From IMG/VR virus record IMGVR_UViG_3300008451_000399, positions 1 to 64,000 of that record: a stretch of 64,000 bases of DNA; one strand, 5' to 3'. The translations under genes and the position numbers were made by a program. The stretch comes from a virus. Every line of letters begins with the position of its first letter. Position 1 is the first letter of the stretch. The notes under the pieces were generated by a model. The model was not told the origin of the DNA. It saw only the letters and a program-made list of their open reading frames with translations, and did no database searches. Of the stretch, positions 6,628 through 55,939 are shown in pieces.

Positions 6628-6655
6628 CACAACCCTCTAAGATATTTGAAATCTA

Positions 6656-6684
6656 TTGACAAAACCTCAATAATATGTTATAAT
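6656..6684 (+). promoter_or_regulatory. consensus sigma70 promoter (TTGACA-17-TATAAT, extended -10)
   Basis: Perfect hexamers with a 17-bp spacer and TG. Confidence 0.85.
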
Positions 6685-6710
6685 AGACATCTTTAAAAAG
6701 GAAAAATAAA

Positions 6711-9037: not shown

Positions 9038-9304
9038 TTATTTATTAAAGCTATGTAATACTTGTACTTCAATTAACTCTTCAAGAGTTGTATCTAATGT
9101 TGCTGCAACTCGTTCAATCTCTTTAAAAACTTCTTTTGGGAGCCGTATTGTAACAGGAAAAAGAGTTTCAGGTTGTTTCACACGAACTCCGCTATCAATT
9201 AAATCATAGTTTTCTGCAAACACTGTGTAGTTGTCTGCTTTTGTACGGATTGTATCTCCTGTATGTGGATTGAAATCTGTCCTGCTTTTACCGAAATTTC
9301 CCAT
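9038..9304 (-). CDS. ribbon-helix-helix-like DNA-binding protein
   Basis: C-terminal VTIRLPKEVFKEIERVAATLDTTLEELI. Confidence 0.55.
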   Translation of the reverse strand: MGNFGKSRTDFNPHTGDTIRTKADNYTVFAENYDLIDSGVRVKQPETLFPVTIRLPKEVFKEIERVAATLDTTLEELIEVQVLHSFNK

Positions 9305-9969
9305 TATTCACCTTTCGCTTTTATTAAATAGTTTTTTGATAAATTAGATAACGCAAGTAATACTCTTTCATCTATCGCAGAATTCTTTAGTGATTCTAAC
9401 ATTTCTAAGCATATCTCAGATTTTCTTTCGAGGTACTTAATGTGCGCTTCCTCTTGAGTCTTGAAACACCCTAAATACTCTAAATTCCCATTATTCTGTA
9501 TGCAAGCTTTTATTAATTTAGACTCAGCTATTGGGAACGTACCAAGAAGAAACTTACTACCCTTACTCCTCGGTTTAACTAAAAGGGAATTCAAATACTG
9601 AGGGACAAAGACACAATTATCCTCAGAGTAAAATCTATTACCCTCGAATAAGATGTCTTTATCTAACTCCCACCCCTCTTCAAAGTACCCTTTCTGATGC
9701 TGACACCATTCTGCAAAATACTGGAAATCTTCAAAATTCTCAGAACACCAAACATCCCTATACGCTGGATTTTTAACAGAACCAAAGTTATTACACCTCT
9801 TCCTTAAATTGTACCAAATACTTGAAGACTTTGTAAAAATTGATCTTTTATCTATTGTAAAGTTCTTTACCCACTTTCCGTCAATTTTAAAGTATGGCTT
9901 GACTTTGGAATTTCCATTACTCGTTGTCACTCCAAGTACCTCCTTCTGAATTAATCTTACTATTTTCAA
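9304..9969 (-). CDS. HNH homing endonuclease
   Basis: WYNLRKRC...FQYFAEW...WELDKDIL..GN..YSEDNCVFVP..LN, then YLGCFKTQEEAH AP2-like tail. Confidence 0.85.
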   Translation of the reverse strand: MKIVRLIQKEVLGVTTSNGNSKVKPYFKIDGKWVKNFTIDKRSIFTKSSSIWYNLRKRCNNFGSVKNPAYRDVWCSENFEDFQYFAEWCQHQKGYFEEGWELDKDILFEGNRFYSEDNCVFVPQYLNSLLVKPRSKGSKFLLGTFPIAESKLIKACIQNNGNLEYLGCFKTQEEAHIKYLERKSEICLEMLESLKNSAIDERVLLALSNLSKNYLIKAKGE

Positions 9970-10105
9970 TCTTCAAGACAAGATTGCCATACTCATCTGT
10001 CCATTCTACTAATACTCCACCTTCTTTACATGACTCTAACACATCATATAAATCAGACTCAAGTAGTTGCTGCTTATTTTTCTTGCCCATTTGTCTTACG
10101 TCCAC
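9917..10105 (-). CDS. hypothetical protein
   Basis: 62-aa ORF in the operon. Confidence 0.45.
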   Translation of the reverse strand: MDVRQMGKKNKQQLLESDLYDVLESCKEGGVLVEWTDEYGNLVLKIENSKINSEGGTWSDNE

Positions 10106-10313
10106 GTTTTATTGTTGGAGCTTCTAGCTCTTCTTGTTGTTCTTGTGCAGCTCCACGAATTAATACAGCGTTGTATTGCTGATCAATCCAAGGATACTCT
10201 GAAGCTTCCTCTGAGATGATAAAGCCCTCTTTAAACTTAGCTTGTAGTTCTAATGCAAATCCACCAACTGAGCTTTCACGGATTGTAATTTTTTCCAAGT
10301 TATTTCCTTTCAT
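10074..10313 (-). CDS. hypothetical protein
   Basis: 79-aa ORF with a basic C-terminal tail. Confidence 0.55.
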   Translation of the reverse strand: MKGNNLEKITIRESSVGGFALELQAKFKEGFIISEEASEYPWIDQQYNAVLIRGAAQEQQEELEAPTIKRGRKTNGQEK

Positions 10314-10316
10314 TAA

Positions 10317-10397
10317 TTATTCAAAATCTTCTTCAAGCATTAAATGCTCTACAAAGTCGTTCACATCAAGATATTCTAGTTCTGTGTATTCGTCCAT
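10317..10397 (-). CDS. 26-aa acidic peptide (not in ORF track)
   Basis: MDEYTELEYLDVNDFVEHLMLEEDFE; CAGGAGA RBS; first ORF after a promoter. Confidence 0.55.
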   Translation of the reverse strand: MDEYTELEYLDVNDFVEHLMLEEDFE

Positions 10398-10446
10398 TGT
10401 GTTCTCCTGTGTTGTTCAGAAATTAAAACATTTCTTTAGAAATTAA

Positions 10447-10475
10447 ACTATATCACCTAAACTGAAGAATTGCAA
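10447..10475 (-). promoter_or_regulatory. sigma70-type promoter (TTGCAA-17-TATAGT)
   Basis: ttgcaa at 10470-10475 and actata at 10447-10452. Confidence 0.65.
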
Positions 10476-10534
10476 GTATTTATTTTACAGACTTTAGATA
10501 TTATTGTGATAACATATTTATTTTCACAAGGGGC

Positions 10535-10563
10535 TTGACAACAGTGAAGATATGGTTTATACT
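10535..10563 (+). promoter_or_regulatory. sigma70 promoter (TTGACA-17-TATACT) for the packaging operon
   Basis: Hexamers with a 17-bp spacer upstream of terS. Confidence 0.8.
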
Positions 10564-10593
10564 TCATATTATAAGTAAATAAGCAGGAGATGT

Positions 10594-10974
10594 ATGAGTG
10601 CAGACGTAGATAATTCAGTAGGAGAGATAGTAAGGACAGGTGTTCAGAGTAAGAAGAACTCTATCACTATTCAGAAGAGGTTACTAAACAAAGAAAACAA
10701 ACCATCTATGGCTTACTTGGTATCTGTGAGAGATGACCCCACAGCAAGTAGGAAAGATAGGATGGAAGCAGCGAAGTTTCTCATGACTATGCACATGGAA
10801 TCTATCAAAGTCGAGTCTGCGGAGAAGGCTAGGAATAAAGAGTTTGCTGCGAAGCATCATGAATTACTTTTAAGTATTCAACGTAATGGTGGTATTATTG
10901 TGGATGATAGTGATGACGATGATGAGTCAAGTCCTCTACTTATGTTCGATCAAATCATGGATGTGGATGAATAA
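10594..10974 (+). CDS. terS: putative terminase small subunit
   Basis: 126 aa, first gene upstream of terL, helical with acidic C-terminus; assignment mainly positional. Confidence 0.6.
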   Translation: MSADVDNSVGEIVRTGVQSKKNSITIQKRLLNKENKPSMAYLVSVRDDPTASRKDRMEAAKFLMTMHMESIKVESAEKARNKEFAAKHHELLLSIQRNGGIIVDDSDDDDESSPLLMFDQIMDVDE

Positions 10975-10980
10975 AATCTT

Positions 10981-11500
10981 ATCAACCATGTGTTGATGTA
11001 GTCTCTCGCAAATATTAACTTGATACTGTCACTCGACACTTCAAGGTTTGTGAGGGAAGCTAGGCTCTGAGATATGTTGGCTTGCCTCCCCTCAGAGGGT
11101 TCCTTCTTAGCAAGGACAAGAATGCGTGGTTGCAGTCACCGTGTAGGATTGAGGAGTTCCTTATAAACCTCGTTACGTACCTTTAGTTTAATGTTAGAAC
11201 ATACGCCTGCAGCGTAAAGTGAGAGGTCAAAACTCTCAGGGTACTCCATAGATTGCAAATACAACGGCTCTCCGTCATTCTCCTGCCATGCCCTCCTCAT
11301 GGTTCTCCTGTGACGTTGTAGAGCCGTTCTGTTTGCAATTTTTCGCAACAGTGTTTCGTCCCATATCTGGTAATTAGCGCCGTAAGTATCGTGGAACACT
11401 GTTGCATTCGGTATTTGCAAATAAAGAATATCAAGTATTTATAAGTACGAAAGTTAATGCAGGTGCGTGGTTGCAAGTTAGTAACCACTTATTCTGTATT
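10981..11500 (+). ncRNA. candidate large structured non-coding RNA or structured terL leader
   Basis: At least 7 hairpins or multibranch domains; many G-U pairs that work only on the + strand; no credible + strand ORF. Confidence 0.65.
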
Positions 11501-11526
11501 GGCGAATGTGAATTTAAAGGAGTAAA

Positions 11527-12966
11527 ATGAGTAAAAAAGAACGTAAAGTTCTTGCTCCAGCGTCAGAAGCACATAGGAAGTTTCTTAATTGTAAATCTAA
11601 TTTTGTTATTTTCGGAGGCGGGGCAGGTTCGGGCAAATCGCACCAAGCGTTAATGTTAATTTTAAAATACATTCACGACCCATACTTCAGAGGTGTATTT
11701 ATCCGCGAAACATCCACACAGCTTTCTCAGGCTGGTGGTTTGTTCATGGAAGCACAAGATATGTGGAAAGATTACGGAGCAAAGTTTAAGACACATCCTC
11801 AGATGACTGCCACATTTCCAAGTGGAGCACAAGTACAGTTCAAAGTGTGCCAAGCAGATAGAGATATCAACAACTTCGACGGTGGGCAGTTTTCACTGGT
11901 GTGCTTCGATGAGGCGCAATGGCACAGTGAAACTCAAATCAAGTATCTAGAGTCTCGTATTCGTTCTAAAGCACAAGCACCTCACCAACTTATCTGTACA
12001 GCCAACCCTTCAAGAGCTTCTTACCTCTACCAATTCGTGCAACCATATCTTGATATGGAAACAGGTATTCCTATTCCTGAATTGTCTGGTAAAGAGAGAT
12101 ACTACGCTACTTATGGTGGTGTTACGGTAACAGCAGATACAAAAGAAGAGTTACTTGAGAAGTACGGAGATAAAGTACAAGCTCAAACATACACTTATAT
12201 CTCTGCTACGGTTAAAGATAACCCGATCATGAAAATCCTGAATCCAAACTATGTAGCGCGTTTGGAGAACTTGAAGCGTACAGAACGTGAACGCCTCTAC
12301 TTGGGGTCATGGCACGCCAAAGAAGAGTCACGAGGATTTTTTAAGAGAGATTGGTGTGAAGTAATTACACAACTTCCAGACGATATTGTATCTACTGTGC
12401 GTGGTATGGATATTGCTGGTAGCTTACCTTCTGAAGCCTACCCCGACCCTGATTGGACTGCATCTGTAATGATGTCTAAGACAAAATCAGGACATTACAT
12501 TATACACCACGGAGAGAGATATAGGTCTTTAATCAATGGGGTAATGGAACACATTGCAGAGACAGACAGAAGAGATAAAGCAATAGGACATTTTCCTGCT
12601 GTGTATTTACCTGAAGACGTTGGGGTAGCAGCAAAGGCAGCAACGATGTTTTTTGTTAAAACACTAATTGAGTCTGGTGTAGATGCAAGGATTGATAAGT
12701 CTGGTGGCACGAAGAGCAAATTGCACAGGATGCAACCCTTTCTTACATTGGCAGAAGCAGGCTTTGTTAAAATTTTAGACGATGGTAGTTGGGACACAGA
12801 GCCTTTGTTGTCAGAATTGGAAGATTTTGTAGATGGGAAGCGCCAGCAAAAAGATGATTACTGGGATGCAACTGGTACAGCATGTAAGGCATTGATGAGA
12901 ACACAGACACTGCCCACATTCAGCCTACCCTCCCTAACAAAGCCATCCCCAGTTCCAAGAATATAA
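11527..12966 (+). CDS. terL: terminase large subunit
   Basis: GGGAGSGKS Walker A, CFDEA Walker B, TANP motif, GMDIA and KDDYWDA nuclease motifs. Confidence 0.95.
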   Translation: MSKKERKVLAPASEAHRKFLNCKSNFVIFGGGAGSGKSHQALMLILKYIHDPYFRGVFIRETSTQLSQAGGLFMEAQDMWKDYGAKFKTHPQMTATFPSGAQVQFKVCQADRDINNFDGGQFSLVCFDEAQWHSETQIKYLESRIRSKAQAPHQLICTANPSRASYLYQFVQPYLDMETGIPIPELSGKERYYATYGGVTVTADTKEELLEKYGDKVQAQTYTYISATVKDNPIMKILNPNYVARLENLKRTERERLYLGSWHAKEESRGFFKRDWCEVITQLPDDIVSTVRGMDIAGSLPSEAYPDPDWTASVMMSKTKSGHYIIHHGERYRSLINGVMEHIAETDRRDKAIGHFPAVYLPEDVGVAAKAATMFFVKTLIESGVDARIDKSGGTKSKLHRMQPFLTLAEAGFVKILDDGSWDTEPLLSELEDFVDGKRQQKDDYWDATGTACKALMRTQTLPTFSLPSLTKPSPVPRI

Positions 12967-53551: not shown

Positions 53552-53794
53552 CTTGTAATTGTACACTCGTTACGTGTTTCGTTATTTTCATAACTAATTG
53601 GACTATATCACCACCCTGACAGGGTGCTCACCGTTTCGAGTTCACTTGAACCCTACTCCATCTCTGGATAGTCTCTGGGCATTTAGGAAGCAAGCTTCCA
53701 TTTAGCACAGTGGTTAGCGTAGCTCCCGCCTTAGCTTTCCCTGTTTAGATGAGTTATCATTTACAGATTACTCTGTAAAGCCACAACAATGTTT
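53552..53794 (-). mobile_element. group I intron (IA2-like, 243 nt, no ORF) in the DNA polymerase gene
   Basis: 5' splice after U (CAU), terminal G, R element CAGAGACUA (53669-53677), S element GAUAUAGUCC (53600-53609), P2, P3, P7.1, P7.2, P8 and P9 stems; splicing restores IAYH-DEAQ. Confidence 0.92.
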
Positions 53795-55939
53795 ATGGTA
53801 CGCAATAAGCTGTTGACAGAAGTTTTTATTCTTCCAATCGTCCTTAAAGAAATCCACACTAAGCCCTTCATCCTTCAGCATCTTATCGTGGAGCACCATC
53901 GCACGTTTGGCAGCAATAACACCACAACTTTGAAACTGACTATTAACTACATTTCCTTTAGATCGAATAGGTAGCTTACGTCCATCAATACCGAGTAAGA
54001 ATTTCTTCTGCCCAGTAGTCTCCCAATACTTCTGCATGTTCTCTTTCAACTGCTTTAGAGGATATGCTTGAGTCCAGAAAGCATTAAAAATAATATTACC
54101 TGTTTCTAAGTCGCAACCTACTGTCTTCGCTACTCGCTTTGGTTGAGCATTATAACTGCAACCGTACTTTACATTCTTAGCTGTTCCACGAGGAAATGGT
54201 CTTCCTAGTAATTCAGTAATACTTGCAGCAAGCACAGAATGACAGTCATTAGGTTTCTCTGCTGTCAAGCTGTAACCGTACTCCTTGCCTCCTTCATACT
54301 TGTAAACAAAGGAAGCTTCAACTTTAGCCTCAAGGCTGTCGAAATCAAAAGCCATCTGAAGGAACCCGTCTTTAACATCCACTCCGAACAAACTGCGCAT
54401 CTCCTTACCATAAATACTTGTCGTTCTGCTAATATTTGCAACTTTACGGTGCTTGAACCTAGAAGTCCCAGCTCCGCAAGTATCAGCAGGTGTTGGAATC
54501 CTATGATCTAAGTTCAATCGCGGCTCACTTAGAAAACCCTTCTCAGGCTCTTCGTCATCTGCGTCAGGGTCTACACCTCCTCCAAGAATACTGTTACGTC
54601 TGTGAGTGTACGTGAAGTAATCAGACACCAACTTAGCATGAGGAAACTTATCAGCAATCTCTAGCAAGTTAGGGTCAATCTCTTTCTCTTGCCCTACTGT
54701 CAGTGTCGGGTTAGTATAAACCTTCAAAGGACGTGAGATGTCATGCTTCATTAACTTCTCTCGCAGCTTCTTAGGAGTTGTCTCCAACTCATCACAACGG
54801 TCTTTACAGAAAGGACTACTTAAAGTCTGCTCTACGTACTTCTCAACTGCTGCTTCAAATTTCTCTCTACTAATCTTTTTCTTCTTTGAGTCACAAGTAA
54901 GGTCACGCTCCTTGTACTGCGTTGGAACCCATTTAAATTCTTGCACTAGCCACCCTTTAATGTGAGAGCTGTCTGCTGCACTGCTACTCAACTTACCAGC
55001 TTCGGTTGAAATTAAAGGCTCACATGGAATTGGTAATGCCATACTCTTATCAAAGATTGTTGCTACCCACTTTCCATCTACTTCCTCTAGAGTTCCATTG
55101 TGCTTGCTAATAAAGTTTTTAATGTGTGTACTAGGTTGCCCACTTTTCAAGAATTGAGTATTAGGTGGAGTGTACTCTTTCTGCTTCGTCTTCGGTAGAG
55201 ACTTAGGTGGAATAAGAGGTTCAACAATGTCACGTATTGTATCCATCTTTTCGTCTAAATCTCGTACACAGTCTTCGGCTTTATCTTTATCAAACCAGAA
55301 GCCTCTGTGCTGTTGTCGTGTAATGATTTCAGCAACAGCTTGTTCCAACTTAAAAGCATCAGTCCAATTCCAATCACCCCACTCTTTCATCAGAGCTTTA
55401 TAGACTAAGTGATTAACTTCTACGTCTCGAATGTTATACACAAGCATTTCTGGATGGTACTGTTTAAATTCATCTCCGTCAGAAGCATCCTTTCCAATCA
55501 GTCCCATCTCAATAGCCTTGCTTCGCCAGTCAATCTTCTCAAGTCCTAGTGTCTTACCCCAAGCATCAATACTATGACCTCCATAGCGGTCTGGATTAAG
55601 AGCTTTTGACAAAATTAGGGTATCCCATATCTCTACAGGCTTACCATCTATCTTGTCAATGTCTCCTATTTCGTAGTCAATACCTAAGTACAATTTAATA
55701 GCCAACAAGTCAAAGTTGATTTGGTTGTGAGCAATAACCATTGTAGCTTGTTTAAAGAAAGCTGGAAACTTAGTTTTCACTTCGTCTTCTACGAATGTGT
55801 AAATCTTGCCAGTGTCTATGTCTTTAGCAGCTATACAGTGAATCTTAAACGTGTCTAAGAGTTTGTAAGGGCTGCTAGTATAGTCTACACTCGTGTGGTC
55901 GATGAAGCCATTGCTCTCAATATCCCATACAATTCTCAT
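53795..55939 (-). CDS. DNA polymerase (family A, T7-like), exon 1
   Basis: Exo I WDIESNG, HNQINFD, YN..DV; motif A DFDSLE; motif B R..AK...YG..Y. Confidence 0.95.

Follow-up and report, generated by a model that had tools for sequence, protein, structure and literature searches.

A 90-nucleotide (nt) stretch of an uncultured phage genome, at positions 11251-11340 of the DNA analyzed here, is a conserved and highly structured RNA element with three pyrimidine-rich loops that each contain CUCCU. We studied positions 1 to 64,000 of the IMG/VR virus record IMGVR_UViG_3300008451_000399 (86,411 bases), hereafter the window, in which the element lies on the + strand just upstream of terL, the gene for the large terminase subunit. 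Across its family the element spans 90-105 nt, and selection keeps both its helices, by compensatory change, and its loop words, namely UCUCCU, an apical loop containing CUCCU and a second UCUCCU. This hairpin family is uncatalogued and occurs at one copy per genome in a clade of uncultured phages of ~80-90 kb, which share ~40% TerL identity with phages of the PAK_P3 and Felix-O1 types. The reading that we find most likely, and hold tentatively, is that the hairpin acts by base pairing with Shine-Dalgarno sequences, in a manner similar to the bacterial Cuckoo/CcsR RNAs.

The sequence at 11251-11340 folds as a single long hairpin with a minimum free energy (MFE) of -40.5 kcal/mol on the + strand (z -9.18), a value that none of 200 shuffles reaches; the minus strand reaches -34.3 kcal/mol (z -6.26). 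The original prediction had described one hairpin that displays three unpaired anti-Shine-Dalgarno motifs, two of them facing each other across a symmetric internal loop, and the fold bears this out (Table 1). The sequence written out with that prediction gave all three loops exactly but left out the c at 11262, one c of ctctcc, the ttgt bulge at 11316-11319 and the c at 11329. The hairpin is kept when the 556-nt intergenic context is folded, where the apical loop has a mean P(unpaired) of 1.00 and the two internal 8-mers 0.76 each. The window contains the pattern TCTCCT-N5-14-CCTCCT-N5-14-TCTCCT a single time, and none of 100 shuffles contains it. At least 116 stretches with a three-motif pattern of this kind are present in viral contigs, and among the 25 best-folding of the matches listed, all 18 motif bases are unpaired in one hairpin only in the window and in the related loci L001, L002, L003 and L042, the remaining stretches being CT-rich sequence.

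We collected homologues by three routes, through terL-based loci, through exact scans with a neighboring 26-mer and through loci found with the 126-amino-acid (aa) protein encoded upstream of the hairpin. A covariance model built from seven copies, R1, recovers 11 + strand copies at E ≤ 1.6e-06, in the window, L001, L002, L003, L005, L006, L042, L141, L143, L158 and L159. Across the 25 sources searched (221,709 bases), the other matches at E ≤ 1 are two weak minus-strand self-hits only. Three complete relatives carry a single + strand copy each, with one weak minus-strand self-hit in addition in G004, and R1 finds no copy in two more distant complete relatives.

In the alignment of the 11 sequences, 95.1% of the 346 pair cells hold standard pairs and both partners have changed in 21 of 33 pairs, a result matched by none of 500 column shuffles; the alignment was fitted to the model, so these counts lean towards it, and the homologues are related to one another, so the shuffle counts overstate independence. 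Sliding the partners by 1-3 columns lowers pairing to 36.0-48.9%. RNAalifold, run on the same alignment, arrives at these helices too, with compensation in 17 of 27 pairs and -7.37 as its covariation term. The stem swaps can also be seen by eye in the raw sequences: the apical stem reads ccatg/catgg, gcacg/cgtgc or ccgtg/cacgg among homologues, the mid stem reads cgtca/tgacg or cactga/tcagtg, and the outer stems of L002, L143 and L159 are wholly different. In the outer stem (alignment columns 1-11/109-119), 6 of 11 pairs carry compensatory changes (columns 3, 4, 5, 7, 8 and 10).

While the stems covary, the loops are kept in homologues, which supports the original prediction on this point. With loop words taken from each sequence's own MFE fold, the apical loop contains CUCCU in 11 of 11 sequences, as CCCUCCU, CACUCCU, UUCUCCUCCUU, UUCCUCCUCCU, UCCUCCUCCUU, CUCCUCCUU or UCCUCCU. 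CUCCU is also found in the 5' internal loop of 9/11 sequences and in the 3' internal loop of 9/11. The longer word UCUCCU occupies both internal-loop strands in eight of the 11 homologues, the 5' strand only in L158, the 3' strand only in L005 and neither in L006. Four distant relatives (terL 56-75% identical) that R1 does not match have a long stable hairpin with one large CU-rich loop in the same slot, reading GUUUUUCUCCUCCUCUCCUUA in L004, UUUCUCCUCCCUUCUCUCC in L007 and AUUCCUCUCUCUCUCCUUG in L011, with an inner segment containing CCUCCUCUCC in L021. These one-loop hairpins present the same theme as the three-loop form and are set beside it by their slot and their CU-rich loop, not by homology.

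The strand of the element is settled by three lines of evidence: the alignment contains 42 G.U cells and 1 A.C cell, in line with the earlier remark that G-U pairs favor the + strand; the + strand folds with an MFE lower by 6.2-11.8 kcal/mol in all seven sequences tested; and the relatives' transfer RNA (tRNA) genes share the strand of the hairpin. Pairing cells number 329/346 on the + strand and 288/346 on the minus strand. The hairpin is not coding, because all six frames across it are interrupted by stops in L143 and L006. These stops also dispose of a 94-aa minus-strand open reading frame (ORF) at 11136-11420, which has a marginal PHROG match (E 0.0049) and none in Pfam, and a protein-coding reading of a 29-aa + strand ORF was likewise rejected.

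No Rfam family matches the hairpin, and hits to the curated Cuckoo/CcsR covariance models are absent from 10975-11530 (E ≤ 10), from 10000-12500 (E ≤ 1) and from the loci of eight relatives (55,685 nt; E ≤ 0.5). The sole hairpin match, MIR7723, scores 16.1 bits against a gathering score of 200 and is a long-hairpin artefact, and the match to the tRNA model (RF00005) belongs to the neighboring element at 11177-11245. Blastn of the 556-nt gap against GenBank phages returned no match, and our literature searches found no phage RNA with anti-Shine-Dalgarno loops in a tRNA cluster.

We then asked which ribosome-binding sites the loops could address. Genes were called with our own crude ORF caller, which chooses starts partly by Shine-Dalgarno score under the same rule for all genes, and within this limit GGAG is present at -20..-1 in 51 of the 69 genes on the minus strand, as opposed to 2 of the 25 in the + strand virion block (14.6-37.8 kb). 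AGGAGAA occurs in 20 minus-strand genes and in none of the virion block, and AAGGA[ACT] without GGAG occurs in 7 and 12, respectively (Fisher p = 7e-9 for the split). The premise that early-type genes use GGAG and virion genes AAGGAA thus holds up in the window. Counted irrespective of gene calls, the minus strand has 36 copies of AGGAGAA and the plus strand two. In the genome of L004 (G001; terL 75% identical), GGAG is found in 5/19 genes of the virion block versus 12/14, 20/27, 9/13 and 12/12 in the early blocks; the split is weaker in the genome of L021 (G002). From this census, UUCUCCU is the 7-nt complement of AGGAGAA, the commonest site of early genes.

In phage T4, the endoribonuclease RegB cuts GGAG in the Shine-Dalgarno sites of early genes, and T4 late genes avoid GGAG. 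The division in the window resembles the RegB system in that early genes have GGAG and late genes lack it, which permits selective early shut-off; it differs in that RegB is a protein nuclease, whereas here the discriminating agent would be an RNA. No RegB homologue that could otherwise explain the split was found in this genome. Phage P1 provides another precedent in its c4 antisense RNA, which is cut from a precursor and whose exposed loops pair with the ribosome-binding region of its target. Unlike c4, which has long specific complementarity to one operon, the hairpin shows generic complementarity to the Shine-Dalgarno word, and it has no Rfam match.

RNAs with anti-Shine-Dalgarno loops are already known as an idea in bacteria. 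The available text of two papers describes the Cuckoo/CcsR RNAs as two to four hairpins, each with the anti-Shine-Dalgarno-like loop CCUCCUCCC and a variable stem, co-transcribed with a small protein and processed by RNase E (PMC4615179, PMC8034643). As in Cuckoo/CcsR1-4 (RSs0680) of Alphaproteobacteria, a pyrimidine loop word of anti-Shine-Dalgarno type is repeated here, and the stems vary by compensatory change so that the loop word alone is conserved in sequence. The Cuckoo/CcsR RNAs are cut from the untranslated region of a transcript shared with a small protein gene. They are adjacent hairpins, whereas we found a single composite hairpin with a symmetric internal loop and an apical loop. 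The loop word is also different, being (U)CUCCU or CCUCCU, and the exact 9-mer CCUCCUCCC is absent from the hairpin; the nearest sequence to it is CUCCUCCC, in the L007 loop. Finally, the hairpin is phage-encoded and sits in a tRNA slot, and the neighboring protein has no match to DUF1127 or any other Pfam family. Motif, architecture, Rfam model and neighborhood thus all place it outside the Cuckoo/CcsR (ar14) group. Similar use of loops is described in the available text on S. aureus RNAIII, in which several loops with the same C-rich word seize Shine-Dalgarno regions (PMC4615179), and on mycobacterial 6C, whose C-rich loops pair with ribosome-binding sites (PMC6486639). Unlike our hairpin, these RNAs are chromosomal with known targets and use UCCC or a C-rich word, and they share no sequence or fold relation with it.

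In the anti-Shine-Dalgarno reading, the helices would be a scaffold that keeps the pyrimidine words single-stranded. The RNA would be excised from a longer transcript that starts at the sigma70-like promoter at 10535 and runs through the 126-aa gene and a tRNA-like element. Its loops would then pair with purine-rich, GGAG-type Shine-Dalgarno sites such as AGGAGAA and AGGAGG and exclude 30S subunits. Leftward genes, presumed early or middle, would be exposed through their GGAG-type sites, as may host messenger RNAs (mRNAs), while virion genes, mostly of AAGGAA type, would pair more weakly, so that translation would shift towards virion proteins. The original prediction derived such a decoy from the late operon; transcription timing, and with it a "late operon", cannot be read from the sequence, because sigma70-like sites of equal quality lie on both strands and within the virion block. 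An extended version, which we consider rather unlikely, has the hairpin do with RNA alone what RegB does in T4: abundant, processed and building up in the course of infection, the phage RNA would use its three anti-Shine-Dalgarno words to mask GGAG sites on host mRNAs and on the phage's own early and middle mRNAs, while AAGGAA virion mRNAs escape. Each gene class would then carry its translation timing in its Shine-Dalgarno dialect. In a bolder variant, the same loops would imitate the 3' end of 16S ribosomal RNA and soak up host toxins that cut 16S.

If the loops do mask ribosome-binding sites, the hairpin would amount to an RNA regulator of translation that is global in reach, encoded by the phage and paired with a genome-wide Shine-Dalgarno split, providing a simple model for how a virulent phage could reallocate ribosomes without a RegB-type nuclease. 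It would also add a well-supported RNA family, with strong covariation, a single copy and a defined slot, to the very short list of small RNAs of virulent phages. Whatever the mechanism, the family is a clean Rfam candidate, and it points to the tRNA slot ahead of terL as a place where modular RNA genes concentrate.

Several observations weigh against pairing with Shine-Dalgarno sites. The core common to the loops is only 5 nt (CUCCU), so low specificity is expected, and the strands of an internal loop, fixed by helices at both ends, are poorly placed for pairing on steric grounds. The internal-loop words are not universal either: the 5' loop lacks CUCCU in L005 (CUUCAUUU) and in L006 (CCUCAUAAC, the loop of a small extra hairpin that replaces the 5' internal loop), and the 3' loop lacks it in L158 (UUUUCCU) and L006 (UUCUACUAC). 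The genes beside the hairpin on the + strand, those for the 126-aa ORF, TerL and the portal, use GGAG sites themselves, and the census depends in part on starts chosen by Shine-Dalgarno score. A conserved UUCCUU next to the hairpin is complementary to the virion-type site; this caveat of the original prediction is well placed as to the presence of the motif, although it is open about half the time in the predicted ensemble (mean P(unpaired) 0.44-0.49). The 3' loop with its flank is complementary over 11 nt to the ribosome-binding site (10401-10411) of the first leftward ORF, of 27 aa, and this complementarity is lost in relatives; the match is treated as chance for this reason, and no covariation with a target is seen. 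Seed-like loops are present; the A/U-rich stem base is followed by only 3-5 U in the window and in relatives, so the 3' end does not look like a typical one of the Hfq type. Lastly, the small RNAs of PAK_P3 that occupy the same slot have no CU-rich loops.

The loops may instead be read by a protein, the hairpin serving as a binding platform or decoy for the 126-aa product, ribosomal protein S1 or a host endoribonuclease toxin directed at the pyrimidine pentads of the 16S 3' end. We regard this as unlikely, yet it deserves more weight than the other alternatives. The same word runs 5' to 3' on both internal-loop strands in most homologues, and identical words give a two-fold symmetric site that would suit a homodimer; this symmetry is lost in L005 and L006, and a single large loop is found instead in L004, L007, L011 and L021. 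Synteny with the ~125-aa gene is retained at 13 of 13 loci examined, and in the available text of PMC8034643, CcaF1, the small protein co-transcribed with the CcsR RNAs, binds these RNAs. Against this parallel, the 126-aa protein matches no RNA-binding family. A protein reader would account for the adjacent CUCCU and UUCCUU elements, and the accessible part of PMC12274833 describes MazF toxins that cut U^CCUU, UU^CCU or CACCU, the 16S anti-Shine-Dalgarno sequence included.

Somewhat less probable still is a role in processing or stability of the tRNA-cluster transcript, as a substrate of RNase III type, a hairpin that protects the 3' end or a weak terminator, with the loop words secondary. RNase III sites of phages (T7 type) consist of about two helical turns of double-stranded RNA with an internal loop, and the hairpin anatomy, a nearly continuous helix of ~27 base pairs below a 6x6 internal loop, is compatible with this. 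The hairpin follows the 3' CCA end of the tRNA-like element in the window, and of tRNA-Gly in L005 and L021, by 5-6 nt, and its stem is succeeded by a short run of U; however, in L007 it lies 5' of the tRNAs, and a scan for intrinsic terminators makes no call at it. At the end of its own tRNA cluster T4 likewise has stable RNAs of unknown role, but these share no loop or fold features with the hairpin. Processing would leave unexplained why CUCCU survives in the loops while nearly all stem positions change. An improbable option is a cis-acting leader in which the CU-rich loops pair with the ribosome-binding sites of terL or the 126-aa ORF, or with GAGGAG of the adjacent 26-nt module, and in this way govern how the packaging genes are translated. 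The loops are indeed complementary to the TerL site AAAGGAGU and to the CAGGAGA site of the 126-aa ORF, GAGGAG (11151-11156) could pair with CUCCUC of the apical loop, and purine-rich leader modules lie downstream in relatives. Yet the window has no such downstream module, the predicted fold of the whole region leaves the loops open, and the distance from hairpin to terL varies from 86 nt in L001 and 186 nt in the window to >1 kb in L003, L005, L006, L141 and L143, where an ORF is inserted between them, which argues against a cis role tied to the terL site. Finally, we give very little credence to function on the other strand or as another molecule, either a minus-strand RNA whose GGA loops would make it a sponge of CsrA/RsmA type or a decoy for 30S subunits, or a site in double-stranded DNA that would serve packaging or bind a protein. 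The minus-strand loops read CAGGAGAA, AGGAGGG and CAGGAGAA, the site adjoins terL, and antisense RNAs are annotated in the equivalent PAK_P3 slot. On the minus strand, however, the 42 G.U cells become A.C mismatches, with one cell in the opposite direction, and the fold is weaker in all seven sequences, so the sponge that the original prediction offered as its alternative does not stand; GGA motifs exist on that strand only, and the + strand loops do not have the GGA motifs of a CsrB/RsmZ-type CsrA sponge. A DNA site would not need compensatory stem changes, and the motif is a direct repeat, not an inverted one.

We further examined the slot that the hairpin occupies, between a conserved ~125-aa gene and terL, where relatives carry a + strand tRNA cluster of up to five genes (L005). 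In the window, the 552-nt gap between the 126-aa ORF and terL contains no convincing ORF, and all that is left of the tRNA cluster is the tRNA-like element. The gap is a series of separable hairpin modules that are shuffled among relatives, and the features found in and around it are collected in Table 1.

Table 1. Features of the hairpin and its surroundings (window coordinates)
Feature	Position	Strand	Basis or remark
Sigma70-like promoter TTGACA-17-TATACT	10535-10563	+	Consensus match, 11/12; possible promoter of the RNA cluster and the 126-aa ORF
Conserved 126-aa ORF upstream of hairpin	10594-10974	+	Putative small terminase subunit, from position alone
26-nt module GGAUUGAGGAGUUCCUUAUAAACCUC	11146-11171	+	Holds GAGGAG 11151-11156 and UUCCUU 11157-11162
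tRNA-like element	11177-11245	+	Rfam RF00005, 48.7 bits; ends 5 nt before hairpin
Conserved hairpin RNA, 90 nt	11251-11340	+	Fold, R1 matches in 11 sources, covariation
Outer stem	5' arm 11251-11261, 3' arm 11330-11340	+	Fold; followed by UUU
Second stem	11263-11272 with 11318-11328	+	Fold
Mid stem	11273-11278 with 11310-11315	+	Fold
Small bulge in 3' arm	11316-11317 and 11319	+	Fold
5' internal loop, 8-mer UUCUCCUG	11278-11285	+	Unpaired core UCUCCU 11279-11284
Apical stem	11285-11290 (GCCAUG) with 11298-11303	+	Fold
Apical loop CCCUCCU	11291-11297	+	Fold
3' internal loop, 8-mer UUCUCCUG	11303-11310	+	Unpaired core UCUCCU 11304-11309
Further conserved hairpin module	11345-11405	+	GCAACAGUGUUUCG...CGUGGAACACUGUUGC; common to L002, L042 and L141
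Terminator-like hairpin before terL	11467-11488	+	Terminator scan
Large terminase subunit gene terL	11527-12966	+	Ribosome-binding site AAAGGAGU

Among cultured phages, Pseudomonas phages of PAK_P3 type have the TerL most similar to that of the window, and identity does not exceed 40%. The 126-aa protein upstream has no Pfam or PHROG family match and no relative in the PDB (best E 0.24), and its 17 homologues are all unnamed or "hypothetical". The Atlas offered no more than a lead to DUF5681 (0.88), and hhalign against the DUF5681 protein of PAK_P3 returned a probability of 0.2. As no family was found, the label "terS" for this ORF follows from its position only.

The tRNA-like element, inserted after the 26-nt module and ahead of the hairpin, encodes a CCA end and combines an anticodon loop of 5 nt with a T loop that is non-canonical; ARAGORN called nothing within 11000-11500, this element included. 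It is missing from this place in L001, L003, L042, L141 and L143. As for the 26-nt module, its 15-nt core is present in 7 of 7 sources examined (the window and six relatives), the full 26 nt being identical and the surroundings variable, and exact scans with the 26-mer found four viral and three metagenome contigs. As the module occurs once in the window, it is not a promoter motif of the repeated kind, and it may act either at the RNA level or as a DNA signal resembling a promoter.

Two cultured phages offer points of comparison for small RNAs in this position. The T4 tRNA cluster, which includes a homing endonuclease gene, ends with the stable RNAs rnaC and rnaD (species 1 and 2; T4 record), and they have only this position in common with the hairpin, with no CU-rich loops and no similar fold. 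In PAK_P3, according to the available text of PMC10914365 and the record annotation, the slot upstream of terL gives rise to two abundant small RNAs that are processed from longer transcripts, rise late and have no start sites of their own. We rejected both rnaC/rnaD and the PAK_P3 RNAs ncRNA1/ncRNA2 as homologues, having found no shared features in a comparison of loops and fold. Separately, PAK_P3 carries a hairpin with the 13-nt loop UUCCUCCUCCUUC in the 5' untranslated region of its DUF5681 gene, upstream of the tRNAs and terL (L165 ~6650-6690; record ~84649-84689, +). It may be an experimentally tractable cousin of the CU-loop theme.

Of the ORFs inserted between the hairpin and terL, those of L003 and L005 match HNH/endonuclease PHROGs, phrog_953 (7.8e-74) and phrog_681 (1.9e-68), respectively. 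These HNH-type (homing-like) endonuclease genes lie on the + strand at 2184-2993 in L003 and 2076-3008 in L005, with similar ORFs in L006, L141 and L143, and the Shine-Dalgarno site in the leader upstream of them appears paired. The window has an HNH ORF at 9304-9969 (-), on the opposite side of the junction.

A two-hairpin leader is conserved before terL in L001 (2917-3000), L002 (~1150-1235) and L042 (~1640-1735); the window does not have it. The loop of its first hairpin holds a strong Shine-Dalgarno sequence and an AUG, followed by a mini-ORF of 1-14 codons whose frame varies, and its stems covary between AGGAGAA/UUCUCCU and AGGAAGA/UCUUCCU. Group I introns lie within terL of L001 (3074-3275), L003 (3094-3358) and L011 (3440-3659), all on the + strand, which explains the longer terL matches of these three loci. 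The window contains a group I intron elsewhere, at 53579-53805 (-; 77.2 bits). On the leftward side, the first gene after the promoter is the very acidic 27-aa ORF at 10396-10313 (-), MDEYTELEYLDVNDFVEHLMLEEDFE, which is conserved in L002, L003, L143, L158 and L159.

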